Origin: Moniliella sp. 'wahieum'
Taxonomy: Eukaryota
NCBI GenBank assembly: GCA_003971905.1
Contig: RSEE01000084.1
Coordinates: 1 to 64,000 of the forward strand
Length of the DNA: 64,000 bases
Direction: 5' to 3'
Below, piece by piece: positions 5,636 to 63,980 of this stretch. The notes under the pieces are model-generated. The model was not told the DNA's origin, made no database searches, and saw only the letters and a program-made list of their open reading frames with translations. The position numbers and the translations under genes were made by a program. Within the stretch, counting starts at the first letter, position 1. The number at the start of each line of letters is the position of its first letter.

Positions 5636-6619
5636 ATGGCTGCGCCCCGCCCACGTGCGTCCGCCCCGCCGCCCGGCCCACCCCCGGGCCCGCCCCCGGT
5701 CCGCCCCCTCGTGCCCCCTCGAGCCACCCCGCAAGCGCCCCCGCAAGCGCCCCCGCAAGCGCCCCCGCAAGCGCCCCCGCAAGCGCCCCGCAAGCGCCCC
5801 CGCAAGCGCCCCCGCAAGCGCCCCGCAAGCGCCCTCTCGGACGCCCCCCCGTCCAACGCAGCCGCCGGAACCGGCGCAACCCGATCCTGCCGAGCTGGCC
5901 AAGACGCTGCGCAAGGAACAGGCGACGTTTTGGCAAGAGATTGAGATTGAACGGATCCTGAGTGCGTTCAAGCTCAACCCGTACGACGTGATGGAGGTTC
6001 CGCTGGAGACGGAAACCAAGGAAATCCAGAAAATTTATCGGCGCAAGAGCCTGTTGATCCACCCCGACAAGGTGCAGCACCGTATGTGTGGCTCGTATCG
6101 ATTTCCTTCCCTGTTGTTCTTTGGCACCTTTGGCTCTCACGTGGGGTGTGCCATGGGAAGAAGAGAAGACTGACTTTATCCCAGCACGAGCGGTGGAAGC
6201 GTTTGATCTGTGAAGAAAGCGTCGAGCCAGCTCCTGGATGAGACGGCGCGGAAGAAATTGGACGAGGTGGTGATGGAAGCGCGACTGACCTTGTTGCGCG
6301 AACTTGACTTGCCACCGGATACGCCCTCGGACCATCCACGGATCCAAGCGATGGGCAAATCGTTTGAGGAGAAACTGAGGACCCACACGCAGGAAATCAT
6401 GGTGGACGACGAGCTTCGTCGGCGTCGGGCGGTACGACTGCAGCACGCTGCCGAAGGAGCCGAGTCGAAGAAGCGGGAGGATACGATCCGCGAGCGCAAG
6501 AGAAGAGCGGAAGAGGCCAAGCAGGGAGGAGACTCGGGACGAACGAGTGGATGGGTGGAGAACGTTGTCAAGGGGGGAGGGGGTAAAAAAAGAAAAAGAA
6601 GAATGCCGTTCTGGGCTAG
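5636..6619 (+). CDS. J-domain co-chaperone, DNAJC8/Spf31-like (one intron 6082-6184; apparent frameshifts)
   Basis: EIERILSAFKLNPYDVMEV...IYRRKSLLIHPDK (HPD motif); GTATGT..CTGAC..CAG intron; then AVEAFDL-KKASSQLLDE, a charged coiled coil, and a lysine-rich KKKKNAVLG* C-terminus. Confidence 0.88.
5727..5833 (+). repeat. 12-bp coding tandem repeat (CCCCGCAAGCGC) x ~9
   Basis: Directly visible; some units are one C short, which shifts the frame between PQAP, RKRP and PASA readings. Confidence 0.92.
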
Positions 6620-8079: not shown

Positions 8080-8260
8080 TGCCACGGTCAGGGCCAAGGC
8101 GAGAGCGACGTCGAGTGTAGGTCAAGCGACGTAGCACTCGTTCGTTCAGTGAGGAAGAAGCAAGAGCAGAGGCCATGGTGCGAAGCGGAAGAACAGGGAA
8201 AGAGCGAGAGGCTCGGGAGGAAATAGGACGGAGCGAAGATCAGCCAACCTATATATGCCA
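8080..8260 (-). mobile_element. Solo/degenerate LTR of the Gypsy family found at 49.9 kb and 52.9 kb
   Basis: Colinear similarity to 49862-50042: gtcagggc.aag.cgag..., ggtcaag.ga.gtagca.tcgttcg, catggtgc.aag, acagggaaagagcgag, agatcagccaacctat. No target-site duplication recognised. Confidence 0.75.
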
Positions 8261-8690: not shown

Positions 8691-11600
8691 CTACTCCACG
8701 GGGGGATACGACCCGCCCTGGTCCAGCACCCAGCGGAAGAAAGCATCGACACTGGTATTCGTACCGTGCGGCGCGGGGGCCGAGGGCGGCAGTCCGCCCA
8801 AGCCGCCGGGCAGGCTCCCGTCGCGGGCGTGGCACGTATCCGTGTCCCTGGGGTCGTAGTCGTGGTCGTGGCGTGGGTGGGTGGGAGTGGGCACGGGCCC
8901 GAGGGGATGGCGACCGGGAGCGTTGGTGGTGATAGGGCAGCGTGTTGGGACAAAAAGGCCGACAGGCTAAAGTCGTCGCCAGGCGCGACCAAGGCCGGGT
9001 CAGGAAGGATGCTGGCGTAGCCACTTAACGGTGGCTGGGTCAGGCCGGGACGGAAGAGGGTGTGGGCAGAGGAAACGTAGGGCGGGGAAGAGCCCGGTGG
9101 GGATCCCGAGCTGGAACCTAAAGTCATTGTTGAAGCCATCGTTGAAGCAGAAGCCGAAACAGAAGTCGTAGCAGAAGTCGAAGTCGGAGCAGAAGTCGAA
9201 GGCGGAGCAGAAGTCGAAGGCGCAGCAGAAGTCGAAGGCGGAGCAGAAGTCGAAGGCGCAGCAGAAGTCGAAGGCGGAGCAGAAGTCGAAGGCGCAGCAG
9301 AAGTCGAAGGCGGAGCAGAAGTCGAAGCCAAAGTCGAAGCCGAAGAGCGCAAAGCCAAAGGCGAATTCGAAGTGGAAGCCAAAGGCAGTTTGGGAGAAAG
9401 TATCTGGGCGGATAAGGGGGGCAAGAGGGTACTGGACGGACGTAAGCAGCCCATGGAACTCATTCCGCCCGGTAAGAAAGCGACGGGCATTTGGGAGCTG
9501 CCGCCGCCGCCGAGCGCGGCGACTTGGGTGCCAAAGTTGGAAGGCAAGGTGAACCAGGATCCGGCGGCGGTATATGTGCCAGTGCCGGTGCCGGGCTGGA
9601 GCCGCGACGGCCACGTCGGGGGGGGGACAAGGTGGGGTTGGCCAAGTCGGCCGCCGCAGTGGAGGTGGCGTAGGCCACGGCCTGTTCCATCTGGGTGCTT
9701 TCGCTCGGGGACAAGTCGGCGTTGTGTTGCTGGAAATGACGGCGCGGATGCGACAAGGCGAGGGCGAGCATGGTGCGTGTGCCGGGCAGAGGTGGGACAG
9801 GTTCCACGTGCGGGCCGACGGCCTGCACGCGTTGTTTCCACTGCCCATCTTCTTCCGCCAGCAGGCCGAGCAAGATGCGCAACGACCGTTTGACCGGCGG
9901 GTTGTAGTGCAGCACAAAGCGCAACGCAATGACGGCCGTCATGACTTGTTTGCGGACTTGGGCTCGGTTGGTGCGCAGTTGCGGCCGAAGGGCCAGGTCC
10001 AGCACCAACACCGCCGCCGCCTGGAACAGGTGGCCACGCAAGCACCACAGTCGACCAATTGCCGTGATGCCTTGCTGCAGCGTCCCGAGCGCATTCAGCA
10101 TGCTGCGCGCCAACAGCACACACGTATCCCGCCCGCCCACCCGGGCCTGCACGCCGTCCAGGCCTTCGTCGCGTGACGAGAGGGAAAAGCGGTGGAGGCG
10201 CAACAACTGGGAAAAGATAATGTTGTGCAACAGGGCGCGTTCCATTGCCACACATGGGTCGGGCGTGGTGGGGGGTTCTTCATGCGGTTTTAAAACAAGG
10301 GAAACTCCACCTCCAAACGAACGGTACGAAGCGTCGAGCAGCGCCACATCGTCCGGGTGCAAGCGGACGAGGAACGCATTGATCCCCATCTCGGCTGCAC
10401 GACGGTTGATGAGATCCGTGTGCTTGCGGATCGTGTTGCCCAGCGCGGCCGGGCCAGGGCATAGGACGCATCCGTGTATTCGCCCTCGGGCCGGGGCGCA
10501 GGCACGACCATCTGTTCCAAGTCGGCATCATGTAGTTGCTGGCTTGGGGGTGGAGAATTGGTCGGGGATGATATTGTAGAGCAAGCCGGCGATTTGGGAC
10601 GCGTACCAGTCGCGCGAGACGAGGGACCACCAAACCCGTTTGCCCATCTCGTACCGCATCATCAACTTGTTCCGACTCGCCTCGGCGCCCTCGGCGCCGC
10701 TCGCCACGGTCGGACGTCCACCGAGACGGTCAATGCCCAAAACGCGGGGCGGCATGCTGGCGGCTTTTGGAGCCACTGCATGGTCGACTCATCTTCGGCG
10801 CCGTGGAGGTCAATGCACAGCATGGCTGGATCAGCGCCAGGGTCGGGTTGGTCACACCGTAATTGAGCATGGCAACAATCGTCTTGGCTGATGAGTACCA
10901 GCAGTTCATGGTGCACGACGCATTGAGCAAACCAAGGGACAACCGTTCATTGTTCTTCTCCGCGTCGGGCAGGGTAAAACTTGAGGCCGAGCACGAGCAG
11001 CATGAGGAGCAAGGCCAGCCATCCGGTTATCGAGCACGTTGAGTACGTGGGCCCGCGACGCCTCGTCCGGACAGGCCAACAGCGTGTCCAATTCGCGCTT
11101 GACCTGGCCAACGTGCACGGCGCGCGTGTGGATAAAGTTGGCGCGTTGCTCGTACGAATCAAACAAGTCGTACATCACCTCGCGCGTAGGAAAGGTGCGC
11201 AAGATGGTGCGCAAGATGGCTTCACGTTCCGCTTGTCCGTCGCCCAAGCCTTTCCGGCATCAAGGTACCTTTGGCGGATTGTTCAAACTCGCCCTTCTCG
11301 GCTGCCGCGGCAAACGTCCAGCCCACCCCAAACCCAAGCTTGGTCTCGGAGCCATTGTAGACCTTGAGGAGACCATTGTGCTTGGCACCAGGTGGGCCGT
11401 CAAGTCCGCCTCGCCATCCCACTTTCCTCCACCTCGGTGGTGGGTGGTCGTGTCGGCGCTGGAGCGCGTGAGCGAACGGATGGGGTCGAGCGCATTTCGG
11501 AATGCGCCGACGACGCATCGTCCCGCATCTCGCGCGCAGAAAAGGAAGGTCCGGACGCCATGTCGGCCTGGGCCAAGGCCAGGGTTGGACAGCGGAGGGT

Positions 11601-12477: not shown

Positions 12478-13869
12478 GGGGGAGAAGGTGGCGGACGAGC
12501 TGCTGGGTGGGAGTGCTGGCTGCGTACTGCGGCTGCGTGCTGGTCCAGCAGCCTGGGGCGGAGCGGAGGGAAGACGGAGGGGAGGATGCACGAGTTGCTG
12601 GGGGGGCTGTGTTGCGGAGTAGGGTTGGTGTGCAAGAAGCGTCAAGCGTACGCTGAAGCTGAAGCTCGACACGCTGGGTTGCGCTTCGGAGTGGGCCGCC
12701 ACCCAACGTCCAGCGTCCAGCGCCCATCGGCTAGCACCTCACAACGCGCACGCGGCAGCCAGCAGCCAAAAGCGGGACGCTCATAAGCAGCTGCCCAGCA
12801 TTGTGAATCGCACGCCGCCCACTCACCAGCACTGCGCCGCACTCGCATCGCCCTGCCGCTGTCCGTGTCCATGTCACCATGTCACCAGTCACTCCTGCCA
12901 CACGCATCACAGGCACCCAGCCACATCACATGCATCCCACCGCACCCCCCTCGTCCCCACATCAATGTACGTAGCCCTGGTACGCTACGTATCCCTCTTC
13001 ACGCCGTACTCCGCTCTCAGATCTCAGACTGAGATCTCACGCAATACAAAAAACAAACCACGTCGACTGGGTGGCCTGCTATGTACCTCCGCCGTTCGAC
13101 TGTCCCTCCAGCGTCGAGCGTCTGGCGCTTTGTCCCTGTCAGACGTGCAGCCGGAACACTCCGCCGGACTGCGCGAGCAACCCTACCATTCCTGCATCCC
13201 TGGCCAGGTGGCACAGGCGGCACAGGAGGCTGGGGCGCGGGAGGGCGCGGGAAGGCGCATTGGTGTGGTCGGGAGTGGCCGGTCCCCTATGCATGTGATC
13301 GATCTCAGATCTCACCCTGAGACCAGCGTCGATGTGTGATGTATGATGCATGATTCCATCCACAGCGCTCCTGCGCTCCTGCGTGCCACGGGTCACATCC
13401 ACACTCCGCCCAGTGGCACATGGCAGCAGCCCCAGAGGAGCTGCAATGCGTAATGCACAATGGCAGCGCGGCACCTCGCAGCCCTTCACGTTTCACTATC
13501 CCCCTGCCGCCCTCCTGCCCACCCCATTCGCATCCTATCAGCACACCGCCCAAAGCTTAATACGCAGACGCTCACCGGTCACCGATTGACAGTCTGCGAC
13601 CCATCCCCTCCGATCTGAGACACGCAACCTCGGATCTGAGACGAACCCCCTACTGCGCTTCCCAAGCTCCAAGGCTTCTATTGATCAAAGTGAAGCTTGA
13701 AACTTGAACGTCTTGAACCCCGCCTGCCGCTCCAGGGCGAAAAAATGGGGGCAGGGCAAGGTGCTTTAACTTTCCTAATAGTTACGCGTTACGGAGGGAT
13801 CAAAATGGGCGAGCGCGATGAATGCGTCACGCCCACAATTAATAAGGACTTGGAACACGGTGCTAGAGG

Positions 13870-27310: not shown

Positions 27311-29369
27311 AGGGGTGAAAGGGCATGTGGACTGCGCTGCGTGGCGGTAGGACCATCTCTTTGGCAATCCAATCGTCTTCCCACCCTGTCCACGTGCGGG
27401 CTGCGGGCCGAGGGGGAGGAGTGCGTAGCTTAGCGCAGCATGCGGGGGTGGGTGGAGGCAAAGCCCCAGCTGAAGCAGTGGTGAAAGTGATATAGTCTGG
27501 CATACAGTACCTCTCCCCGCTCTCTCAGTAGCCACCAGTGCCTCTCACGATGAGAATGCGACGTTGCCCAATCTGCTCCTTTTATAGTGATGGGTTACTC
27601 CTGCACCCGCGGCACGGGGTTTTCACTCGGCCAGTTTCTCAGTACCAACCCCGTCTATAATAGGCGGGCCAGATGCAGCTTTTGCCGGGCCCACCGTTCC
27701 TGTGTCGTGAAGGAAAGCTTACCTCAGTCGTTTGGTGACGTAGCTGTGGCCTAGCTTTGGCGTTGGATATCCCGAAAGATACGCGATTCCCTTTTGAAGC
27801 GGAGCATCCGGGCACGGATATTACAGGCCATGGAAAAGGTATTTGTGCAGCACATGAAATGACCCTGCCCACTCAGTCGGTTCGCAACATCAGTTTGGAC
27901 TCCGCTGAGCCAAATCCAACCTGACCGTTCTGTTTGACACTCTCTCCCTTCACCGCTCTCCATGAGGAGTTATAACGCAAGAGGAAGGGGGCTGCGTATG
28001 CCCAGTTGGCTATCTTTGCGTTTTGAGGCGAGGAAGAACTTGGGCATCCCGGTAGGGTAGGGGCGGGACTTCCGGTGCGCATCACTGCATCTGGCACGGT
28101 TGTTGAAGAACCTTCACGGCATGATGGCGAGTGTACCTCCGCCATGGACAGTGCAGAGCCACTGACTATGATGCTGTTGTGCTCCCGCCTGACTTTTGGC
28201 TTCCTTGTTAAAGCAGCCAAGCTTCCAACGGTGCCCTTCTCTGCCCTTTGACCTTCTTTATTGCGCCGGGGAGAACTCGCTTCTGGAGAAGCGAGCACGA
28301 CAATACCCCGATGCATGCGATTGACACGCGGCACGAATCGGAGTACAGACACTTGTGGTAGCTTAATGTGCTACTATGCCCGAGATGGATCACGCCCATT
28401 CTGTCCTGGTGCTCCACCAGGCACATGTTCCACCCGTATGTGGACCCTTTCGCCTACCTTGCCAAGGAATCCACACCCACATCCACACCTCTAGGGTCTA
28501 CCGCAACAGGAGATAAGAGTGTTAACTCTGTCCATGCAGTGCTGGCTAGTAGTCTCCCACCCAGTTGAAGACGAGAGGACACCCACCTGGCAGGGAAGAC
28601 CCTTCCCTCCTGGGCTGTGCCCAGCCGGTGCGCAGGATAAGAAAGAAAAGGATGCGACAGCAAGTGTCAGGGAGCGCGTATTGGCGCTGGAGATCCAAAC
28701 TGGGGTGTTTCCTTGGATCCTGTAGCAAGCAAAAAAGCAGTTGGAGCCCAGAGAGTCCGATGCGTTCGCAAGGGAGCAAGACAAGCCACTGCCTCTGAGA
28801 TCTGATCTGAGATCTGACGGGCTCTTACTGGTCAATATTCAATCTACAAGCGCACTTTGTCAGATATGCCTCTCTCCGACCGCACGTCTGATTGCTGGTT
28901 CGGTTCCCCATGGGGCAGAGCCAGGCGGTGTGCTTCCCTCCTCCCGGCTGCAGCCTGCCGCTGCGGGCCGACGTGCTTTGCGAAAGGACGGGGCAGCCGA
29001 CGCCCATGCTTGATCACGTGCGGCGGCGGGGCGAGGGCGCAGCGCCCAGGCCGAAAAAAAACACGCGCGACGTACACTGCCCCCTGCCAGCGCGTTGCCT
29101 TCGCACCACGCCACTGTGCGGCTGGGGCGCTGCCCGCATGCCAGCAGGGACATCAACACGAGGCGCCAGACTGCCGCTGCGCCCGCGCCGGTGCAGCGCG
29201 GCTGCCGCACCCGGGCAGTCTCCGCCGCGTGGCCGCGTGTGCGCGCGACCGCGTTGGCCCCGTTGGCCCGATGGCGCCGGTGCGGTTGGCGGTGCTCTTG
29301 GCCTCCTGCTACCACCAAGTGCTCTCCCCCCCCCCCCCGCCCCCCCGCCCTCCCCTTCCTCCACCAACC

Positions 29370-33714: not shown

Positions 33715-34139
33715 GGTGGGGAGCTGCGACGGGGTGGGGCCAGGGGTGGTGGTGGTGGTGGTGGCTCTCCCTCTCTCTCTCGACACGCCACGTGGAATTC
33801 CGAGGCACCCCCGGCGGAACGCGCGGCGGAATGGCGGCCGGGGGCGCTGCGAGCAGGTGGCGCCGAGGGGCCGCGGGGCGTACGTAAGCGGACGCGGTGC
33901 GTGGGCCGGCGTGACGTGGAGGGCGCAGACGTGTGGTGCGCGCACGGCCGCCCCGTGATGATCGGCGCTGGCGGGGGTTTCAGCACGAGCACGACGTGTG
34001 ATGGGACGTGTGACGTTCAGCTTCGCCTTCGCGTGACCCTTCAATTGGAGCTTCAAGCTTCACCCGTGGCGCCGAAGCATCAAGCAGCAGCCGCCATCTC
34101 CCCTGCCGCCCCCTCGCCGCCCGACCTGCCTGGTGGGGC

Positions 34140-36560: not shown

Positions 36561-37155
36561 GCTAATGCTCGATGCAGTTGAACGCCGCGGTGCACTTTGC
36601 CCCCCCACCCCCCCCTTTTGCTTGGTTCTCCGTTTCGGCCCCGCCTCTGGCCCATCTGTCTCGTCTCTGTCTGTCGCCGCGCTGCCGGAAGGGGCGCGGA
36701 CGTTGTCTGGCTGTCATGGCGTCCTGAAGTGTGTTTTTTCTAGCTTTGGATGGGAGACTATTAGGTGCGATGTATGATGGAGGAGGCAGAATACTAGAGT
36801 CTGGCATGCGCAGGGAAAAGGTATGGGTAGGTGCCAGCAGGGGCGGGTGTGGAGGCGGCATGATGCATGAATGCCGAGGGGCCAAGAGCGGTGGGACCGG
36901 GGGGCGGAGATGGGCAAAGGCGGGCGCGGCACGAGGACAGACAAGCAGGGTGGTTATGGATGTGACGGCGCGTGCGGTGTGCTGCTGCGGCCCACGTGGT
37001 CTGCTTCCTAGTGATAAGCGGATCGCCGCGGCTTGCGGCGCTCTGGGCTTGGATGCGCGTCGCACCACCGCAGCTGCGCAGCGTCGGCCGCTGCCACACC
37101 TGCGTGTATGCCGCCCTCTCCACCTCACCCCCACTGCACGCCCACGCCCTAGCCC

Positions 37156-38841
37156 ATGCGCCCGAGCCCGTTGCGCCTCCTCCTCGCGTCGCTCCTGCTG
37201 CTCGGCCCGCCCGCGCGCGCCGCCCCGCCTGGTGCTCCAGCCCGATGCGCGTGGAGGGACCGAGCCAGCTGGATTTTCAATGCCCTTGTCGACAGTGGCC
37301 GGCAGTGGGGCCCCGGCGTACACCACAACGGCATGGGCCTCATGGTCGCCACCATCCCCAACGGAACGGTGCTGTACCACGGTTCCCCCAGCCCCGACCC
37401 AGTCACTGGCTCCGAGTGGCTCGCCTTTGAGCCAGATCACGGACTTGTCTTTGCGCGTCCGCCGTCGTGGCATGGCCCCAAAAAACCCACGGAACGGCAC
37501 CGAGCCTCCCAACGACGCATCGCCTGGTTCCGACGGGGAGGAAGAGGAGGAGCAGGAGGGGCCCTGCACGAGCTCGAGAGCGAGGGCGTTGGCGCTGGTG
37601 CGGGCCAGCTGGTGTTGGGCCAAGAACGTGTTGGCTACTTCCACACGTACCGTACCAAGCATGATCTCACGGTGCTCTATGTGGATGGGATGAGTGCGGG
37701 CAAGACGGCGTATGGAACGACGGGTACGCAAGACTACCTTTTGCTCAACCAGCCTCCTGGCCCCGGCGCGCCCTTTATGGGGGAAACGCAGCGGAAAGAT
37801 GGGCTTTGCGCGTTGTATGCGCAGCATGCACCCCACCTGGCCGGCACGGTGCGGACCGAAGCGGGGTTCGAGCTGATCCTGTGTGACTTTGAGCGGGCGT
37901 GGGGGCGCCGGAACGGGTGTTGCGGGTGCAGCCCCCCTGGCGCCTGGGCCCGGGCGCGGGGGCAACGTAAACTGGGTCGGAGGCGTGGCACAGCGGTACG
38001 ACGGACTGGGCCAGCGACTCGAGCTGCATTGGGACCCGCGCTCGTACTTCTCGGCGTACGTGTACGATGCTCCGTTGTTCGATGGGCCCCCTGTGCCCCC
38101 CGGCAACCGTTCCGTCTCCCACGTTGTGCCTCGGTTCGACCACCTGTCCCAGGTCGACGTCGCGGCGCTGCACCAAGCTGCCCAAGACTGGATCCGTCGC
38201 ACCACCGTTCCCACCGAGCGGGGCATTGACTGGCGCACGGTCGCGGACGAAGTGGTGCGCGGTATGCTGACCCGCTGCGCTGGATCACTACCGACGCTAC
38301 GGACGAGGAGATGCACGGGGAACTGATTCGGCTTCTGCGGCCGTTTTCGGCTAGCTTGGCGGACAGTAGTGAGGAGGGGGAGGGGGAGGAAGAGGAAGAG
38401 GAGGAGTGGAAGGAGGAGGAGAAATGGTGTGTGCTGCAGGCGGTGCCGTACCCGGACGACGGATCGGTAGCGTCGCGCGCAACGGCGCGGATCGCGCATC
38501 GCATCTGCACCACGCTGCGCCTCGCCCGGGCTGACGCGGAGGCCGGGCAAGCCGGGACGAGCCGGGCGCGGATCCGCGCGTTGGTGCGCGACCTGGACTG
38601 GGCCGAGTGGAAGAAGTGCCGGCCCGGGTGCAAGCTGAACGAGGTGTGCGGGGTGCCGATGTGGCCGCTGGGCTCCGACGAGGACTGGAGGCAGCCGTCG
38701 TGCCAGCCGCTGCAGAATCCGTTTCCAGACCGGAATGGATCCAACAACTACTGGGGCGGCTGGCCGGACGCTCAGCCTAGCCTGGGGCGTCGCATCCCCG
38801 TCACCAAGTGTGATGCCTGTGCAATGAAATGTGACATGTGA
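37156..38841 (+). CDS. Predicted secreted conserved fungal hypothetical protein (frameshifts; 3' end uncertain)
   Basis: Signal-peptide-like MRPSPLRLLLASLLLLG; RQWG..HHNGM..ATIPNGTVLYHG..EWLAFEPDH; LYVDGMSAGKT..GT.GTQD; RTEAGFELILCDF; C-terminal LDWAEWKKCRPGC..EVC..PMWP. Confidence 0.75.
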
Positions 38842-38880
38842 AATGTGAAATGTGAAATGTGAAATGTGAAATGTGAAATG
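38824..38880 (+). repeat. 7-bp tandem repeat (TGAAATG)n x8 with one TGACATG unit
   Basis: Directly visible between the secreted-protein gene and SMC3. Confidence 0.92.
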
Positions 38881-38933
38881 GGCAAGCCCGACGCGTGCAG
38901 AGTGCTGTACCAACCGCTGACAGCCACACGTGA

Positions 38934-42914
<3,981 letters not shown>

Positions 42915-49861: not shown

Positions 49862-51800
49862 TGTAGTCAGGGCTAAGACGAGGGAGACCACAGTCGAGAC
49901 TGGGTCAAGGGATGTAGCAATCGTTCGTGGGACGAAGCAAAAACAGAGTAAGGCATGGTGCAAAGTGAAAGAGACAGGGAAAGAGCGAGGCGTTCGGTAC
50001 GAAGAAATTGGAAATGCGCGAGAGATCAGCCAACCTATGACATTGCCCCCTTAAATCAGGCCTCGGCTCCCGGGCTGCAACGGAGGCGAGAGAGGGGAGT
50101 CGGCGGGCATGAGAGACAGGCTTATCGGGGTAGATGGCATGGAAACACAGACGACTGGCTTTCACGGCCGCCACGACAGCCAGTACCTCCTTTTGGGACG
50201 TGAAATGGTTCAGCTCGGCCACGGTGAACTTGCGGGAATGGAAGGCAACCTGCCACCAACGACCGTTAACATTCTGCTGGGCTAACACCGCGCCAAGCAC
50301 CCCGCGTCCGACGCGTCGGTGTCGAGGCGGAGGGGCCGAGTGTGATCAAGTGACAGAAGAGGTGGGACGAGGCAAAACGCGCTTGAGCTCGGCAAACGCC
50401 TGTTAGCGGGCTGGGGTCCAAGACAGCTGCTGGTCCTTGCGTGTTAGGTCGGACAGGGGGGCTGAGGTACGGGCAAAAGAACGGACGAAGTGACGGTAGT
50501 AGTTGGTGAAGCCGAGGAAAATCTGGACTTGGTGATCCGTTCGGGGTGTTGGCCACGGCCGAATCGACTCAACCTTGGACGGTTCCATTCCGATCCTGCC
50601 AAGCGAAACGACGTAGCCCAGGCACTCGGTTCGGAGGGTGTGGAACTGACACTTGTCGCGGTTGAGGTAGAACTTGACCCGCTGGCGCCGGAGGACTTCG
50701 GTAACGTGGCGCTCATGTTTCCTCCGATAGTCGAAAAGATGAGGATGTCATAAGGTATGCCAGCACCGATACGTCGAGTAGGTCGCGGAGGATGTCGTTC
50801 ATCCCAGCTCGGAAGGTGGCAGGGGCGTTGCCGAGGCCAAACGGCATAACAAAAGGGATTCAAAGTGCCAGCACCGAGTTCGGAAAACTCTCGTCGCCTT
50901 CTCTAACCCGCAACAAGTTATACGTCGCCCCACGGAAGTCGAACTTCGTGAAGATGCGGGTCCCACAGAGAGACGGCCCAACGAGTCACTGATCATACAG
51001 AGGCAGATCCAACCGGTTTTTGATCGTAACCGAGTTGAGCGCACGATGGTCCACGCGCAGGCCCAGCGAGAGCCGTCCTTCTTTTAAACAAAAAGGACGT
51101 CCGGGCTGAAGGAAGACTTGGATGGAGACGGATGAAACCTGAAGCAAGGTTATCCTCGAGCCATTGGGACAAGTCCTGCATCACTGTCTCACCCGTCAAC
51201 AAGGGGTAGAGGAGAGTGAATATGGGGGCGGCGCCGGGGACAACTTCGATGATGTGGTCAGCGGCACGATGGGCGGGAAGCGTCTTAGCCCCTAACTTGG
51301 AAAAGGCGCTAAGGAATGAGTCGTAGCGGGGAGGGAGACCGTCTGGGGGATGTGCTCGAGGTATACTCGGGTAACCTGCGGCGATTGCGTCACGCACACT
51401 CCCCGCGGCTTCAAACCGTATAGGAAGTCCCAGGTATGATCCTCGGCCACCGCGTTGGGGTTCCAGCGACGCAGCAGGACCGTGAACGTAGTGGAATAGT
51501 CGCAGATCCCGTCTGCCGGAGACAATAATGACACTCTCCTCAAACGCCTTCTGCACCAGGTTGCGCTCGCCCCACTGCTCCAAGAGGGATGCAGGAGACG
51601 TAGACCGTCGATACTGAAGGACGGGTGTGCTGCGCGCCTCCAAGAAAGGGCCACCTAGGAACAGAACTGCTCTACCCAAGTGAGGGCCTCCTCCTGCAGC
51701 AGGCCCATAAAGCGGTAGATCCATTGCGCTACACCCATGTGAGTGAGGGCGACGCGGGCGTAATCTCGAAGATGACAACGTGCTGGGCCTGGCAAAAATG
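49862..51800 (-). mobile_element. Internally deleted Ty3/Gypsy LTR retrotransposon: gag remnant, RT, RNase H, PPT, 3' LTR (~180 bp)
   Basis: TLPAHRAADHIIEVVPG..LASGFIR; MEPSKVESIRPWPTP..VQIFLGFTNYYRHFV; LGAVLAQ..VAFHSRKFTVAELNH..KEVLAVV; PPT AAGGGGGCAA at 50052-50043 directly followed by TGTCA. Confidence 0.92.
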
Positions 51801-52794
51801 ATCGAGGGCAGACCAAAAGGATAAACGTATATAAGGCGTGTGTGCCCCGGAACTGTATATGCATCGCTCTAGTATCTACATGTTGTTGTCAGTGTATTTT
51901 CTTCTTCGAAGACTTTGTGATTGATCTCCAATTACAGAGGCATTACCGATTATCGAATCGGTTTTTGCCAACACAAACATATAATCCGTCGCCACAAAAC
52001 GCTATACGACGCGTGAGACAACTATTTTTCTCCAACCACACGCCACCATTCTCTTCTGCACTTGCGTCTGACACAAGGGCCGTATGAAAATCGAGAGATG
52101 GATGTCGTGGCGGCGTCAAGCGTGAAGTACACCAACGAAAGACGGGTTCACATATACGTTACTGGATCGTCAGCGGCATTCATTCCCCTCTTACTATAGC
52201 TGTTTGCTCTGCATCCTGCGGCTTGGCTGTCTCAGTCTGTCTTATATGTTTCACAGGCTTTTCAGTGGCCAGTATACCATACGGTTATACCGGTTCCGGG
52301 TTACCTCACACAGCCGTTGGTTAGCACTTCGTACCGATGCACGTCGCCGTTGCATCAGCCTCGACTATCAGAATTCTCTGATCGATCTGATCTCTGATCT
52401 CAGATCTCTCTCAGAACCGGCTTTGTCACACGTGTCACATTCTCTCGGTGTCGTGTTCGCTGTATATATACGATCAATTCGATCAATAAAACGACGTACT
52501 GTACGTGCTTCAAAAAAGCTTCCAGTTTAACGCATACAAGGATAAGCATATGCTTCAAGCTTCAAGCTACAGGCACATGCAGGGCACCCCATAAGTTGCT
52601 TGACTGCTTCTTATATACAACTGGAAGGGTTTCCGAAGCTATGAAAATCCAGGCTTAGTACAGCCGTGAACAGGAAGAATTCTGGTCCACTGAAGGAAGG
52701 GGATTGCGTATTCATTCTTCAGGCTGCATGGGATGGTGCCTTAGGCCTTATATACCAAAGGGAAAGTAGAAGCAATCACACGGTGAACAAGGTG

Positions 52795-54090
52795 TGATGA
52801 GAGAGACACACACAAAGGGGTCAAGAAAGAGATCTAGGACAGGGTCATTCGCACAACCGGTGGGTAGAAGTGGAATAATAGTAGAGGAAAAGAGCGAGAC
52901 GCTGGGGACGAAATTTGGAAATGGGAGCGACGAGATCAGTCAATTACTATATATGATATTGCCCCCTTTCAGACCTCGTCTCCTGGGCGTTGGCAGAGGC
53001 GAGAGAAGGCGAGTCAGCGGGCATGCGAGACAGTCTCGTGGGGATGGTAGAGGGCAAGGAAGTGAACCACAGGCTCGGAGTCATGAGACATAATGTCTTC
53101 CGCGGGTACCCTCACCCGCCGTGGACGGGATAACCACGGAAGTAAACAGTGTACTCACGATGCGGCCCCCACTGCCCATGCTGGGAGAGACGATAGGACG
53201 TGATCGACCTCATGGTGACCAGCATCATCATCAGCATATTCAGGAAGAGGAGGGTGGGGCTCCCTCAAGCGGATACGGACCACGTCACCTGGGGTATAGG
53301 TACAAGCGGGATACATGAAACGTGTCCTGGTGGCGTAGGTACTAGTTGGGAAGGCGGGCCTGTTGGTACGCGGCGCACCAACAGCGCGGATAATGGGACA
53401 GGGACCGATGTAACGATATTGGAGGCCGCCGTAAGGCCTCTGGCTAGATAAATACCCGTCCCGACGGACCAAAACAGGCTGACCACACCGTGAAGGAAGC
53501 CGCCTCGATGCACCGTTTTGATTGGCATAGTGCGTATGCAGCGTTCTTTTGAACCGCAGCCAGCGTCCGGGGACTACCGTTGGACCGAACACAAATCCTC
53601 AAGATACAACGCAGCATCGGGCACGGCGATGTGGTTGGTTCAACTCTCACCCCCGGAAGGAGTATCCGTAAGTGAGGACAAAGGCGACTGATGGGGCTCG
53701 AGTGGGAGGACGAGTTCTAGCCAAATTCGATGACCGTGGGGGAGAAGCCGGACCAATTGGACTACTGCTCGTCGAGATAACAGCGGATGTGCTGTTAGAC
53801 CTGGTTAAGGCGCTCTGTCTGGCCGTCCGTCTGTAGTGGTACGCGGAGCTGAGGCTCGACTTGTGATACTCAAGTCGGTACACATGGCTTGCCAGAAGTG
53901 GCTCATGAAGGTCGTTCCACGGTCACTCACCAGATATAAGGGAAGGGCATGGGCGATGAGTTGCATGGTGTATACAACTGACGTGGGAGCTGTGGCGCGG
54001 TGTCCTTCGTGTGGGCGGGAATGAAGTGGCCCCTTGTTGAAACAGCATTCTCTCGGCAAGTCCGAAACGTCCACACAAAAGCCACAAGTC
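52795..54090 (-). mobile_element. Second Gypsy (chromovirus-like) copy: integrase core, chromodomain-like tail, PPT, decayed 3' LTR
   Basis: LVSDRGTTFMSHFWQAMC..SSAYHY..DGQTER; YRYIGPCPIIRAVG; HEVDHVL..EYTVYFRGYP; PPT at 52969-52959. The 3' region is colinear with 50043-50150 and the LTR with 49970-50042. Confidence 0.88.
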
Positions 54091-56439: not shown

Positions 56440-59400
56440 TCCGACAATCGCTTGCTTCACACCGGTCACCGGCCGGTCACCACAGAAGCACGCTTTAATT
56501 GGCACATCACAAATGCATCACAGACCATTTCAAGCTCTTCCCTGGTCACCGGTCACGCGGTCACGCGCACGCGCGATTCACGTCATTAGGTCACAGATAT
56601 CACGGTATGCCCGGATTCACAAAACTGTGCGCCAATTCATGACGAGCGTGACGTTCACAGTGCCCAGGAGCAGGACAGCAGGGCAGTAATAATAGTTGCT
56701 GCTATTTTAACTCCAAGTCCTAATTGATGTTGATGTAACTGGCATCAACGTTATACAATTCTTGAAGCTTCAAGCTTCAGATCCTTCAAGCTTCAGAAGT
56801 CCTAACAAGAGAGCCGCCTCTCTTATGATGCTGATGCATGACGCATGCTTTAGATATCTGAGAGCCCGTCAGCTGTATTAGGCATCCCTCTGACAGGGAG
56901 AGCCACACCCGATCCACTCACTACACATATATCTTTGAGGTGGGGGTCCCACACCATGATGCGCTGCGCCTGTCAGCTATAGCTGCCATGGGCCTGGAGG
57001 GAGCGTAGAACGCGGCCAGTAGATAAATAAAGAAACTATTTTTGGGCAACTTGTATTAGTATTATTATACAGAAGGGATTTTTCATGGGTCAACACAAAA
57101 CGCGTCCAAGTTTTGGCCAACACGTTCCCTGACGTCTATACCCGAGCGTGCACAGCAATCGCGAAGCTTAGTAGCACTTGCACTGTGGAAAAGGTGTATG
57201 CGGTAACCGGTAACCGGTAACCGGTAGTCCGTAACGCGGAACGCATACCGGGAATAATTGCCATAGAGAGAGCTACTCGAATATATACACACAAAGGCTA
57301 CATAAACTGGTGGAGTTTCGGGTATATATGCCTACCTCTGTTGATCGATGAGTATGAGTGGAACGGGCGCTGGCTTGAGCTAATAATCTTGCGGGGATGG
57401 GAGGCACAGGTGGGACCGTGTGTGTGAGCGACTATATAATTAGGGCCTGAGGTGTCCTGGCCGCAGCGCTCTGCGACAGTGTGTGTGTGCGACGGCGCAG
57501 AGTGCTAGTACAGGACGCTGCAAGATGTGACTGGGAGCATGAGCTGAGACATGTGTGGGCCAATAATAAAGGCTTACTAGTTACTAGTTACTAGATACTC
57601 TTCGCTGCCAGTATTAGGCCTTAGGCTTAGGCCTAAGCCTTAGGCTCGCCTTAGCGCCTTAGCTAGCTTCTGAATCGGGCCGACGATCGATATGATCGAT
57701 GACGCGGATGACGATGACCTCGATGACCGGCGACCTCGTCTATGTATGTGTTGAGAGCCGCTCAAAGTCCGCGGACGACCGAAGCATTGGACGGTTGTCG
57801 ATTGCCGATATGGTCTCGGTGGTTTGTAGAGGTTAGTCGTACGTTTGCGCAATGTGCGTCTCCAGCTTTCCTGTAGGGTTATAGAGAGATGCGGACCGAA
57901 ACGAAGCGGACAGCCTCATAGCCCTCGCCCTCAGTCCTCAGTGTCCTCAGTCTGAGGCCTGAGGTACCTCAGTGACTTTTCCTTTAAATTGTGTTGAACG
58001 AGAACACGCCGAGATAACGTACGCCTCTCAGTTGTGTATGCCCCCTGTAGCATTAATGTGTTGGCTGATATGCGGTGTGGGTATATATACTGCGCGGCGG
58101 CATTCGGCACGAGCATTCTGATCTGGCGCCTGAGCCTGAAGCCCCTGAGGCCTGAGGACACTGTTTGTTCTATGTCATACAGTCTCGGAACGATAGGGAG
58201 GGGCCTCGAGGCCCGAGGGCAAAAAGTAGGGTATATAGAGAATGGTCTTTTGCAGCGGACTCTGGATTCCGCGCTTGCAAGAAGGGGGTGTGGGGCCATA
58301 CTCAGTACTCGGCACTCGGGGCTGTATAGGCAGGGCTGCGCAGGGCTACGCGCTATACGTGGGATTCAGATCTCCGATCTCAGATCCTCAGATACATGTT
58401 CCGATCTGAGATCTCAGTCTGAGAGGTATCCATCCCACATTTCAGTCGGGGATTCGACATTCACATTCACCTGTCACATGTCACAGAAGAGAAAAACGAA
58501 AGGTGTCGCAAGCGCGAGTGACTGTGACGCGGTAGATGACGGTGGTGACATGTCTGGTGAGCCCTGAGCTGCTCAGCGCCTGAGCGCGGGAGCGCCCAAA
58601 CGCAGGGGTGACTTGCTTGAAGCTTGACTAGTGACTGGTGACTGGTGACCGAAATTTGATAGGCGTGGGTATGCGGCCAATGCCAACAATCCCGGCCAAT
58701 ATATATACCGGGCCATACCTGGCATTTTTGTTACATGTTACGCACGAAGAGTGCGTGTCTAAGGCCCTGCCTCCCAAACGATAATGGATGATTGGCGCGA
58801 TCATCGTCCCCCGCCTGGGACTGAGGCATCCCTGAGGCCTGATGCGAACACCTGTGTATGGCGCCCGCGAAAGTATCCAATTTTAATGAGACGTATAGAT
58901 GTTGGTATCCAATTACCTCCATCCTGAGGCCTGGTTCAGCCTGGGCTTGAGCGCTTGGACGGCCTGGCATGGGCCTGGGGCTAGGAATTTGTGACGTAAC
59001 AATGTGACAGGCCTCTGCCATCGACTTGTCGAGAACAGTGCCCCTCCGTTCTTCCTATCCATGTCCTAAGTAGAGGAGAGCAAGTATTACACGTTGAACA
59101 CATTGGATGGATCCCCATGTGACAAGGACCAATCACTGAAGTAAACGGAGTGACTAGTGACTAGTGACTCTGTGATTCGAGTCGTGAAGTTAACGTGGTA
59201 CGGTTGGTTCAACTGAGGCTCAGCGTTCAGGGCCTCAGATCCAGAGCCGCTGGCCTCACGCATCACGTTCAACGCTGAGCCTCTCCTCAGCGCTCAGGTG
59301 CTGAACCGGCAGAGGAGCGTTGAACGTGTCGAACGTGACGCGTGTGACGCTGGCAGTGGAAGCTTGAAGAGCTTGAAGCTTGGAGTGACTTAAGACATGT

Positions 59401-59870
59401 GGTTAGCATGAAGTGACTTGTGACTTAGGCGAAGCTGGAAAGCTAGCGACATGTGACATGTGACATGTGACAGGGGATGTGTGAAAGTGACTAGTTGGAT
59501 ATTGATTTTGACTATTCCGGAGGCCTGATGCGTGATGATCAATGTCCGTCACATGACCATTGGTTACTAGTGGCAAGGGAAGCAGAGGGCGTATGGCAAT
59601 GCTGGTCGACGATACCATTTGAACGCAAATGCATGATGATCTCGATGATCGTTGTTCGATGAGGTCGATGAGGCCGAGACCGTCAGGCAGGTCTGAGGCC
59701 TGAGAAGGCTGGAAGAGCCATCATGCATCATGCATCATGCGCATGGCTAGTTTGATGTCGATTACTAGCACTGGTTTTGATGTTAATGTTATGCGTTATC
59801 GGCGTCAAGCTTCAAGATCAAGCTTCTAGCTCGATGTAGGCCTAAGGCCTAAGGCCATAGGCCTATGGAC
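56440..59870. repeat. Dense field of short arrays of 7-bp odd palindromes xyTNAy'x'
   Basis: Examples: GGTCACC 56544; CTTGAAG/CTTCAAG 56761; GGTAACC x3 57202; TTACTAG x3 57574; TCTGAGA 58405; AGTGACT x3 59149; TGTGACA x3 59452; CATCATG x3 59719; CCTAAGG x2 59841. Confidence 0.88.
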
Positions 59871-60529: not shown

Positions 60530-62002
60530 ATGTCCTTCTCAATGACCGACTCTGTGAAGCAAGCACCTCCACCGGTAGGTAACATGGTTCTCTTTGCTAT
60601 CATTTTGTTGTCTGTGTACCAGGTCATTGACCATACCTTCTCTTTCTCATGTTAGAACATGGGCACTGCTGTTCCTTCTCTCCGCTCCACCCCCTCGGCT
60701 ATGCTGGGCGGAAACAATGGCTATCCTGTCCAGCACGGAGGGCAATGTGCCCTCTAACATGCTCGACTCACGCGAACCATTTCTCAGCCTACAAATGTAC
60801 CTGGTAACAAGCCCCCCCCTTCGTTCCGGCCCCCTTCCGCCCGGACATGACTTCAGCAGCGGTACGTTCCATTTTCTCCTGTTTACCTATCACTCGAATG
60901 GAACCAGCATCAACGTTTGACTGACCCCTATGGTTTCAGCAGCAAGGTGGTCGCTTTTCCGAAGACGGTAGTATGCCCCGCAACCTTCCCCCTGGTGGAG
61001 AATGGAGTCCTGTCAGCTCAGGAGGTGGATACAACGGCCTTCCCACCCCCTCTTTCCTCGGTATGGAGGAACCCGCGATGCACTCCCAGCCTCCCGCGCA
61101 GCAACAGCAGGTCCAGCAACACGTTTATCCCAACACATATGGTCACTTTGATTCAAGTTACCCTACTCCTCCCTCGTCTGTGCCCTCGATGCGTCCAGAC
61201 GGCGAGCGGGGCTTCATGCCTCATCCCAACAACCTGTATTCCAATATGGAGGGTCATCAGGGTGAACACTACGGCCTGCTCGACCCCAATGGATCTCCTT
61301 TGATGCCCGGGCGGGCGTGCAGCGTTCAGTCTATCATCCTGGGGCATCGGTCCTACGCACTGACCAACGGGCCATGTCGTTTGCCCCCGACGCACGCTAC
61401 ATGGGCCCTCAAGGCATGCGCAAGGGCCTCCCGACCCCCCTTTCTTCGAGGGAGCCTCGTCGATGGTCCCTGCGCTGCCTATGGCCCAGAAGCGGCCCAA
61501 GGCAAGGATCGATAGCGCCGCCCGCAAGCGTATCTGTCAATTCGCCGAGATCAACCCTGAGATGCGCCAGGCTGACGTTGCAGCCGCGTTCAACGTCGAG
61601 CGCTCGACTGTGAGCAAAATCTTGAAGCAGAAGGCCAAGTGGCTTGCATACCAGCCTGACGATGCAGATGACGAGAGCAAGAATAGCTCCAACGCGGCTC
61701 CGACGCCCAAGGCCACGGCGCGCGTTGCCAAGCCGACCAACAACCATACAGGTCGGAGGCAATCCTCTACCACCGCCCTGTCCCGTGGACCTGCGGTGCT
61801 GCCTTCGCCGCAGACAGCAGTTCGCTCCCCTCTTCCGTCGGGGATAAGTCCGGACATGGCCTACCCCGTAGTGCCCCGCAAAGTGTACCCCCCGGCATAC
61901 CCTTCCCTCCCCGTCCGTCGCAGTACCAACCCCAACACATGTGAACTGCGCCCATCACGCCCGCATGACACTCACGTGAGAAACGTCCTTGTATACGACT
62001 GA
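60530..62002 (+). CDS. Spliced gene for a low-complexity protein with a CENP-B/pogo(Tc5)-type N-terminal HTH DNA-binding domain
   Basis: Kozak-like cACCATG at 60530; introns at ~60575-60655 and ~60862-60939; RIDSAARKRICQFAEINPEMRQADVAAAFNVERSTVSKILKQKAKWL at ~61506-61645; Pro/Gln/Gly-rich flanks; 3' end uncertain. Confidence 0.78.
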
Positions 62003-62739: not shown

Positions 62740-63980
62740 AACCCATCATGCATCATGCATCAGTGCCAAAGCGGCAGCACCTCTGTTACTAGTTATGCAT
62801 TCGGTCCGTCGGTGCGCACTGGTCTCGTTTGAATGAGTACTTAGGCCTTAGGTTTTGCGCGCTTAACTCCACAAACCGAGTCCCAAGAATCACTGAAGTA
62901 ACAGCGCGCCGGATAAACGGCTTCGTCCCCGTGTGAATTTCGGCTCTACGCAACCACAAAAAGGGAGCTGGGCGGTGGTTCTTCGAGCGTCAGCACACCA
63001 CTGGTTCTCGTATCTCTCATTCGTAGCACCCGACTCCCACCTTCAGCACCCGACTCCCCAGTACACAGCACATCATCATGCATCACCGGCCTCATCGGTC
63101 ACCCCTGAAGAGGATCCCGGTCTGATCTCGGTCTCAGCGTTGCTCATCTTATCAAGCTTCAAGCTTCAGGCTTGACTTCAAGCTTCAGGTGCTTTAGTGG
63201 AAAGCGCGCACACACAAGCAAACAATATGTGATGAGAAGGCGTCACAAGGGTGTGAACAAAGGGATACAAATGGGAACCACGGTGCTCGTTGCTCAGCGC
63301 GCTTATTATAGCCCGTGTGAGCGCTGAGCGCGCAAAATCAAAAGCTCCGTGCTGCTCAACAGGTGAGTTCAGTTCTCAAAAGCTCTCATTATGCATTACA
63401 TTACCGGCTACCAGTACGCAATCTGAGTACTACTCTCAGACTGAGTACTGAGACTCAGTCCAGTTGAGTTCTCGGAGAAAATATGGAAATTGCCAAACAT
63501 ATGGCCCTGGCAAGAACTGTGGTGACGCATGTGACGTCCGGTGCTTGAATCAAGGACGTGATGCATAGGTGAATCTTGAAGCTTGAAGCTTGAAAACCTG
63601 AGGGGCCTGTGAGGCCTCAGCGTCTCAGCTTGAGGCTTACGGCTGATGGGAAGACTGAAAATGCTTGGATGGTGCAATGCAATGTGTTTGGGAGAGGGGT
63701 GCAAGATGGGATACGGCGCGAACAGTGTGCCTGTGTGATATTTTAACGGCTCTCATGTATCTCTACCATCATGCATCAGTATCTATATCAGTACTCAGTA
63801 CTCAGTACGCAGTAGAGACAAGCAACAAGGGCTATGAAAGTGATTAAAGTGAAAATGATTGCTTTTAGAGGGCCCTGCAAGGGTGAAGCCGGTGAAGCTT
63901 GAACCCTTGAACGTGAACGTTGAACGCGGGTTGAACGTTCGGTTGAGTACGCTGAACGTTGAGCGTATGTTGAACTGGAA
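62740..63980. repeat. Further xyTNAy'x' heptamer arrays
   Basis: CATCATG ~62745; CTTCAAG cluster 63150-63188; CTTGAAG x2-3 63575; ACTCAGT x2-3 63788; GTTGAAC cluster 63893-63975. Confidence 0.85.

Follow-up and report, generated by a model that had tools for sequence, protein, structure and literature searches.

Arrays of TNA-centred 7-bp palindromes in a smut-related fungus as probable excision footprints of a cut-and-paste transposon

The target duplications of hAT elements are 8 bp long with the consensus nTnnnnAn, transposition by Transib and RAG yields 5-bp duplications, and the TWA duplications of PIF/Harbinger and Zator elements are mostly TAA or TTA. The bacterial IS10/Tn10 has a symmetric hot-spot, GCTNAGC, inside a 9-bp duplication, and its hairpins form on the element ends. 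Hairpins on the flanking DNA, and the footprints associated with them, are described for hAT, Transib, MULE and RAG (PMC5499845). In Candida, yeast and plants, P nucleotides are present in Ac/Ds footprints, and the palindromes in hAT footprints centre on the complement of the element-adjacent base (PMC5873905). Among basidiomycetes, the cut-and-paste families with 7-bp duplications include hAT7 in Pucciniales and Kyakuja (KDZ) in Agaricomycotina, the latter having 5'-CA..TG-3' ends without inverted repeats, and the PIF/Harbinger duplication is given as 3 bp (PMC12730594); in Cryptococcus, KDZ elements make 4–8-bp duplications and the CACTA-like CNIRT6 one of 3 bp (PMC12810828). Here we analyse one 64-kb assembly window from one strain, Moniliella sp. 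'wahieum' (GCA_003971905.1, contig RSEE01000084.1, positions 1 to 64,000), in which short tandem arrays of 7-bp palindromes centred on TNA recur, many of them in the interval 56440–59870; all positions count from the window start. We propose that these arrays are probably iterated excision footprints of a cut-and-paste transposon residing outside the window, which would duplicate a 7-bp TNA-centred target and leave by way of flank hairpins.

The repeated unit is xyTNAy'x', an odd 7-bp palindrome in which primes mark complementary mirrored bases and N is any base. A sequence-only reading of the window had described period-7 arrays of such units at 56440–59870, and this description held up. Tandem Repeats Finder returned 14 period-7 rows within the interval, two of which overlap. 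Exact period-7 runs that reach 14 nt or more number 40 in the window, 12 of them inside the interval, and 24 of the 40 had an odd-palindrome rotation, compared with about 1 in 40 expected from 7/256; 23 of these 24 were xyTNAy'x'. Self-identity at lag 7 reached 0.32 in the interval, with 0.23–0.26 at most other lags and 0.28 at lags 6, 13 and 14.

Enrichment was restricted to the TNA core. The 12-mer xyTNAy'x'xyTNA occurred 43 times in the window against 0.135 expected from 200 third-order Markov simulations, and each of the other 15 core types in the same 12-mer frame occurred 0–3 times, a control that was repeated with a low-complexity filter. The equally self-complementary cores ANT, CNG and GNC gave 0, 1 and 1 occurrences, and TNA is itself among the rarest N-spaced trinucleotide classes, with 2369 sites in the window. 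Enrichment over simulated and non-TNA controls, which had been suggested as a check on the pattern, was thus confirmed: the pattern is real, highly non-random and far above chance. Of 40 oriented sites, 31 had C or G as the central N. The arms xy varied widely, and the first copied base x was C in 21 and G in 5 of 40 oriented scars, as we call the loci that carry the pattern. With x so often C and seldom G, GC-centred junction palindromes (AGCT, GGCC and TGCA) are common and CG-centred ones rare. This bias could reflect target preference, a joining bias or CpG decay.

The pattern is not peculiar to 56440–59870. We counted 64 scar loci window-wide, of which 25 lie in that interval and 39 in 56–64 kb, although only 8 fall in the gene-dense 20–48 kb, so that gene-poor DNA is dense in scars and the gene-dense part sparse. 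Exact scars occupy 415 of the 3431 nt of the interval. Fourteen units had been listed as tandem; nine were recovered in the interval as tandem 12-mers, whereas TCTGAGA, GCTCAGC, GTTGAAC, GATGATC and CGTGACG recur 2–5 times, counting both strands, and form no exact period-7 tandems.

Collapsing the 43 12-mers yielded 37 plus-strand arrays, 31 of them single-event and 6 two-event. Each has the structure (xyTNAy'x')n followed by xyTNA, with a length of 12+7k nt and the A of TNA as its final base, and is not a string of whole palindromic units as first described. The period-7 match ended exactly at the 12-mer boundary on the left in 22 of the 37 arrays and on the right in 21 of the 37. The direct copy that follows the palindromic 7-mer extended for 5 nt (33 cases) or for at least 7 nt (36 cases), with stops at 3, 4 or 6 nt being rare. 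The base after the 11-mer was A in 76 cases and another base in 13, indicating that the A of the second TNA was already in place. What changes in one event is xyTNA, which becomes xyTNA y'x' xyTNA with a gain of seven bases, five copied and two mirrored; the palindrome is produced by the event and was not there beforehand.

The same product can be viewed as two TNA triplets separated by a 4-nt palindrome. Among 78 such 10-mers, the central base was the same in both triplets in 70, flipped in 5 and otherwise different in 3, contrary to the claim that N flips within a cluster. In the 70 same-N 10-mers, the 4-nt palindrome matched the left flank only in 25, the right flank only in 15, both in 18 and neither in 12, so that the filler was flank-matched in 58 of 70. 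At non-palindromic sites, these matches define an L form, xyTNA-y'x'xy-TNAcd (n = 25), and an R form, xyTNA-cdd'c'-TNAcd (n = 15); the other 18 lie at palindromic sites. NNTNA repeats with a 2-nt spacer numbered 106 against 4.2 expected, and in 76 of the 106 the spacer mirrored the first two bases of the copy. The 4-nt filler thus takes its bases from the local flank, by copying and mirroring, and so is not element-derived. Together with the absence of an excess of TNATNA, the corresponding +3 product (49 against 38 expected), this speaks against the proposal of a TNA duplication joined to 2 nt from each element end.

A gain of five copied and two mirrored bases lacks the symmetry expected of a dimeric enzyme, and a symmetric 7-bp alternative was tested instead. 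In this model, the duplication is xyTNAcd centred on N, and each flank gains up to 2 mirrored bases or loses up to 4; expectations for the +8, +9 and +11 classes came from 40 simulations. The +9 class comprised nine distinct loci, each with two full 7-mers around a 2-nt spacer in which either the first bases of the right copy or the last bases of the left one are mirrored. Five loci formed the +8 class, with one mirrored base between full 7-mers (for example, TGTCACC A TGTCACC at 12872), and a single +11 locus kept both mirrored pairs (GGTCACC GG CC GGTCACC, 56464); 0.0–0.03 were expected per class. There were also three plain TNA-centred 7-bp duplications. In an unbiased list of 7-mer/2-nt/7-mer repeats, the spacer was mirrored in 9 of the 11 with TNA-centred phase, and the +9 class with other cores gave 0–2 matches each. 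Mirrored tracts were short, 2 nt being far commoner than 1 nt and flipped-N forms (at least 4 nt) amounting to 2 cases. The new point is that the entire 7-mer xyTNAcd is duplicated, and a 5-bp duplication cannot account for the copying of cd. The L-only (25), R-only (15) and shared (18) cases point to a 7-bp duplication centred on N, as only this yields both forms by a single chemistry.

The loci on which this description is built are given below; they were read from pattern scans of the window and carry no strand.

56464..56481: +11 scar, GGTCACC + GG + CC + GGTCACC, with both copies and both mirrored pairs (expected 0.0–0.08)
56544..56565: +7 L form, then a +8 scar, GGTCACG C GGTCACG
56768..56797: two +7 L-form scars, CTTCA-AG-CTTCA, 16 nt apart
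57202..57222: (GGTAACC)3, a two-event array
57572..57592: array of AGTTACT units (+7 events)
57612..57625: +7 R-form scar, TATTAGG-CC-TTAGG
57649..57663: +8 scar, CCTTAGC G CCTTAGC
57698..57728: two adjacent +9 scars, GATGACG CG GATGACG (57698) and GATGACC TC GATGACC (57713)
57929..57964: plain 7-bp duplication, CCTCAGT CCTCAGT, then a +7 R-form scar, TCTGAGG-CC-TGAGG
58144..58157: +7 scar, (CCTGAGG)2
58472..58485: +7 scar, (TGTCACA)2
58616..58649: +7 L-form scar, CTTGA-AG-CTTGA, then AGTGACT/GGTGACT/GGTGACC units
58729..58742: +7 L-form scar, TGTTA-CA-TGTTA
58831..58844: +7 L-form scar, CCTGA-GG-CCTGA
59149..59169: (AGTGACT)3, a two-event array
59363..59378: +9 scar, CTTGAAG AG CTTGAAG
59452..59472: (TGTGACA)3, a two-event array
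59635..59673: two +9 scars, GATGATC TC GATGATC and GATGAGG TC GATGAGG (59658)
59719..59739: (CATCATG)3, a two-event array
59803..59816: +7 R-form scar, CGTCAAG-CT-TCAAG
59841..59854: +7 scar, (CCTAAGG)2
52377..52401 (outside 56440–59870): +9 scar, TCTGATC GA TCTGATC, overlapping a plain 7-bp duplication
13703..13718 (outside 56440–59870): +9 scar, CTTGAAC GT CTTGAAC, mirroring the end of the left copy
28794..28817 (outside 56440–59870): two +7 scars, TCTGA-GA-TCTGA, directly upstream of the tubulin frame
62744..63897 (outside 56440–59870): scar cluster at 62744, 63074, 63157, 63176, 63387, 63440, 63575, 63767 and 63793, with a +9 scar at 63882

Two stretches adjoining scars have a character of their own. 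At 58622–58649, the units AG.TGA.CT GG.TGA.CT GG.TGA.CC contain a period-7 run of 19 nt. No phasing of its duplicated unit on TNA is possible, and the run breaks the scar rule; it may be slippage following two scars. At 38825–38880, a TGAAATG microsatellite of 8 copies (readable as TG.TGA.AA units) adjoins an L-form scar, TG.TGA.CA TG.TGA, at 38830. It is placed between a long unassigned reading frame at 36565–39201 (minus strand) and the plus-strand SMC3 frames, and may be a plain 7-bp TNA duplication later grown by slippage.

When a target is directly duplicated and also accompanied by mirrored bases templated from the flank, the classical reading is insertion and subsequent excision through flank hairpins. 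Both features are present here: the two copies of the target duplication are kept at nine +9, five +8, one +11 and three plain loci, and P nucleotides mirrored from the flank lie at the junction (76 of 106 and 9 of 11 in the two repeat lists). Among the origins put forward by the sequence-only reading, footprints of a cut-and-paste element with a symmetric 7-bp duplication are the best supported, given full 7-mers with 1–2 mirrored nucleotides. The DNA itself displays four properties: a 7-mer is duplicated, bases are mirrored, the sites are T.A-specific, and the L and R forms are symmetric. From these we infer an element, its flank hairpins, the point at which these are opened and the route by which the ends are joined. 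The element would integrate with a 7-bp stagger to give xyTNAcd–element–xyTNAcd, and on excision each flank end would be closed as a hairpin precisely at the element border. A host nuclease would then nick each hairpin about 2 nt from its tip, so that the left end carries the 4-nt self-complementary overhang cdd'c' and the right end y'x'xy. Non-homologous end joining would mostly drop one overhang and keep the other, producing the L or the R form as TNA, a 4-bp palindrome and TNA; the gain would always be +7, whatever the sequence, because one 4-nt overhang is lost and the other is ligated and filled in. Rarer joins would retain both 7-mers plus 2, 1 or 2+2 mirrored bases (+9, +8 and +11) or none (the plain duplication), and re-insertion into either TNA copy would build arrays of three to four units.

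Opening a hairpin at 3 nt would give the same product as opening at 2 nt because T pairs with A, and opening at 4 nt would flip N, a form seen twice. The T.A requirement would not be generated by this chemistry and must then be a target preference. Junction variety of this sort is the kind seen in end joining, and the one scheme explains why the period is constant, why L and R are mirror images, why the rare classes exist and why the +3 product TNATNA is not in excess.

Other schemes were tried and discarded. A hairpin tip at N on each flank predicts xyTNAy'x'd'c'TNAcd, of which there were 0 cases. A duplication of TNA only, with a 4-nt filler from the element ends, conflicts with the match of the filler to the local flank. 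A quasi-palindrome effect acting alone conflicts with the lack of enrichment of ANT, CNG and GNC.

Several observations weigh against excision footprints as the origin of the arrays. With 25 exact loci on 3.4 kb that contain 245 TNA sites, the density is very high for fixed footprints, and 58 of about 76 scars represent one outcome, a stereotypy that exceeds published Ac/Ds footprint spectra. The 12 10-mers that fit neither flank compare with 1.6 expected. All 12 keep at least one of the four flank bases required by the rule, which weakly suggests that they are copies decayed by later substitutions. Mirrored +9 repeats without a TNA centre are found at 59322–59337 (GAACGTG TC GAACGTG) and 63837–63852 (AAAGTGA TT AAAGTGA) and may be rare off-target events or chance. 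On the plus strand, the mirrored bases derive from the right copy in 32 cases (25+7) and from the left copy in 17 (15+2), an excess that may also be chance.

The search for the element itself points the same way. Inverted ends of at least 12 nt with 2–10-bp duplications, sought window-wide, gave nothing convincing, and when the window was searched for TNA-centred 7-bp direct repeats that lie 30–12000 nt apart and have inverted inner ends, nothing came up except the arrays. Pfam detected no DNA-transposase domain in 126 frames of at least 150 aa and 21 further frames (taken from 30 entries, 9 of which repeat the 126 set), so that frames below 150 aa were covered only within 48–64 kb. The 64-kb window thus holds no intact transposon flanked by TNA-centred 7-mers, which it had been proposed to look for, and no resident element with matching duplication length and target, a feature of the footprint class. 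A candidate end motif, CTCACTG, had 3 occurrences in the window, on one strand only and below chance. An open frame at 61364–62002 (plus strand) matched a CENP-B_N-type helix-turn-helix (E = 3.8e-05) with no adjoining catalytic domain. Such helix-turn-helix domains are the DNA-binding kind found in pogo-type transposases, and the frame could be a pogo-like element remnant or a host DNA-binding protein.

As to the density, a rough decay-based argument suggests that the event rate per TNA site is about the substitution rate per base, which is conceivable for an active family. We suggest, tentatively and with more doubt than conviction, that one hairpin-forming cut-and-paste family, or a domesticated descendant of it, with a 7-bp TNA-centred target has visited about one in ten intergenic TNA sites.

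With scar density high and no element in the window, a host-encoded hairpin-forming enzyme stays a live, if unlikely, rival. A host enzyme, such as a domesticated transposase that forms hairpins, would make breaks at TNA, and the scars would stem from their repair or from template switching there, with no mobile element passing. The very high density and stereotypy of the scars suit this idea, and a fold-back or hairpin step of some kind is evident from the mirrored bases. However, a direct 7-bp duplication with mirrored bases would be the product of integration and then excision: filling a staggered cut would give a duplication without mirrored bases, and hairpin ends alone would give the reverse. 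The +3 product of a trimmed TNA-staggered cut is not enriched either (49 against 38). Hairpin repair, one of the candidates in the sequence-only reading, survives as one step of the footprint scheme, but by itself leaves the direct 7-bp duplication unexplained.

Quite improbable, in our judgement, are footprints of a Transib-like element with a 5-bp duplication (xyTNA) at which only the flank away from TNA keeps two P nucleotides. The commonest product does consist of exactly five copied and two mirrored bases, and even-centred palindromes fit border hairpins as in RAG/Transib (PMC5499845). This explanation nevertheless requires an asymmetric NNTNA target and unequal treatment of the two flanks, leaves unexplained the nine +9, five +8 and one +11 loci in which cd is duplicated, and predicts a period that varies with P length where period 7 dominates.

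Replication slippage, or hairpin-driven expansion of quasi-palindromic 7-bp microsatellites, is very unlikely. Arrays of three to four units exist, and the TGAAATG tract beside a scar is a true period-7 microsatellite of eight copies, but slippage needs existing copies and 31 of the 37 arrays are single-event. The ends of the runs are phased on TNA and not arbitrary, the other self-complementary cores are not enriched, and slippage would not create mirrored 1–2-nt spacers between full 7-mers. We exclude slippage on account of these predominantly single events, TNA-phased ends and mirrored spacers, as the earlier judgement that ordinary slippage would not suffice had anticipated.

Selection of binding sites for a dimeric protein that reads xyTNAy'x' deserves next to no credence, even though the units have dyad symmetry and some are found immediately upstream of genes (28794–28817 for tubulin and 34051–34062 for Sec66). 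The arms xy are highly variable, the last unit regularly lacks its right arm, the +8, +9 and +11 variants would be senseless as sites, and density peaks in gene-poor DNA beside retroelement debris. Free arms, a missing last half-site and this distribution exclude such selection, and with it another of the origins first proposed. An assembly or base-calling artefact is a negligible prospect, as many copies have decayed by single substitutions, few arrays fall in the gene-dense part of the window, and no error mode known to us produces 7-bp palindromes templated by the flank.

The window is nuclear fungal DNA, with intron-split frames for tubulin, SMC3, the PP2A B56 subunit, Sec66, PAN2, a P4-ATPase and a mitochondrial carrier, and two tRNAs. 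The host is a smut-related fungus: among named relatives, the SMC3 fragment is nearest to Tilletiaria anomala, at 54% identity, and the next named matches are mostly other Ustilaginomycotina, with two further assemblies at 88% and 78%. The interval 56440–59870 holds no convincing gene; upstream of it lies retroelement debris, including an RT_RNaseH fragment of a decayed retroelement at 49905–50345 (minus strand). Three stretches of about 170 bp, at 8087–8252, 49866–50144 and 52885–53061, are about 75% alike and possibly long terminal repeat remnants. Two pairs of these paralogues, 75% identical, showed no clean +7 event, with indels of 2–5 nt, and are too diverged to help. No long repeats that could serve as paralogues were found inside the window. 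Among metagenome contigs, the SMC3 fragment as query recovered only two loci at 27% identity, useless for orthologous alignment, and no look-alike stretch in another genome was present in the comparison index searched. Unrelated to the TNA pattern, long, in-frame-looking tandem repeats occupy 9141–9363 and 5713–5834, made up of an 18-nt unit repeated about 9 times and a 12-nt CCCCGCAAGCGC unit repeated about 9 times.

If about one in ten intergenic TNA sites has indeed been visited, scars would make up a measurable share of the non-coding sequence, and the writing of footprints would rank among the main sources of promoter sequence, of dyad-symmetric motifs and of microsatellite seeds. If the arrays are footprints at all, this genome is a natural archive in which many independent hairpin repairs are preserved, 64 of them in the window alone, and would record the point at which hairpins open (mostly 2 nt from the tip), the end that is trimmed and the rate at which both target copies survive. 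The footprints would point to a transposon type with a 7-bp TNA-centred target not yet characterised in Ustilaginomycotina, and would imply that the coming and going of transposons is enough to create dyad-symmetric 7-bp arrays in promoters and to seed microsatellites. In annotation, the arrays should in that case be taken neither as regulatory motifs nor as a new class of repeat element.

Compared with the known systems, the 7-bp duplication, with T and A at positions 3 and 5, is unlike the 8 bp of hAT. The scars are also even-centred (n = 58), and the odd-centred hAT signature, xyTNAc-d'-x'-yTNAcd, occurs once (59285). They resemble the empty sites of Ac/Ds (hAT), which keep the target duplication, carry short flank-copied palindromes and are dominated by few junction types; the hairpin model behind them has been shown in fungi (PMC5873905). 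RAG/Transib coding ends are alike in that the hairpin lies exactly at the border and the mirrored bases are even-centred and typically 1–2 nt long (PMC5499845). Plain period-5 NNTNA repeats number 8 here against 3.4 expected. Duplication of cd in the +8, +9 and +11 classes further sets the scars apart from the 5 bp of Transib.

Kyakuja (KDZ) and hAT7 share the 7-bp length of the duplication and occur in basidiomycete fungi; they are described from Agaricomycotina and Pucciniales and not from Ustilaginomycotina (PMC12730594). No KDZ or hAT transposase or element termini were detected in this window, with no Pfam match in the 126 and 21 frames and no copy. The T-N-A target triplet is shared with PIF/Harbinger and Zator, but their 3-bp TWA duplications differ from the 7 bp seen here, 31 of 40 sites have C or G as N, and TNATNA stands at 49 against 38. 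IS10/Tn10 likewise has a dyad-symmetric, T-N-A-centred target in the middle of its duplication; its hairpins, by contrast, are on the element ends, so that it leaves no such footprints. In the literature searched, we found no description of TNA-centred 7-bp palindromic scars genome-wide. The scars are a variant of a known scar type, remarkable for their density and regularity, and not a new class of element.

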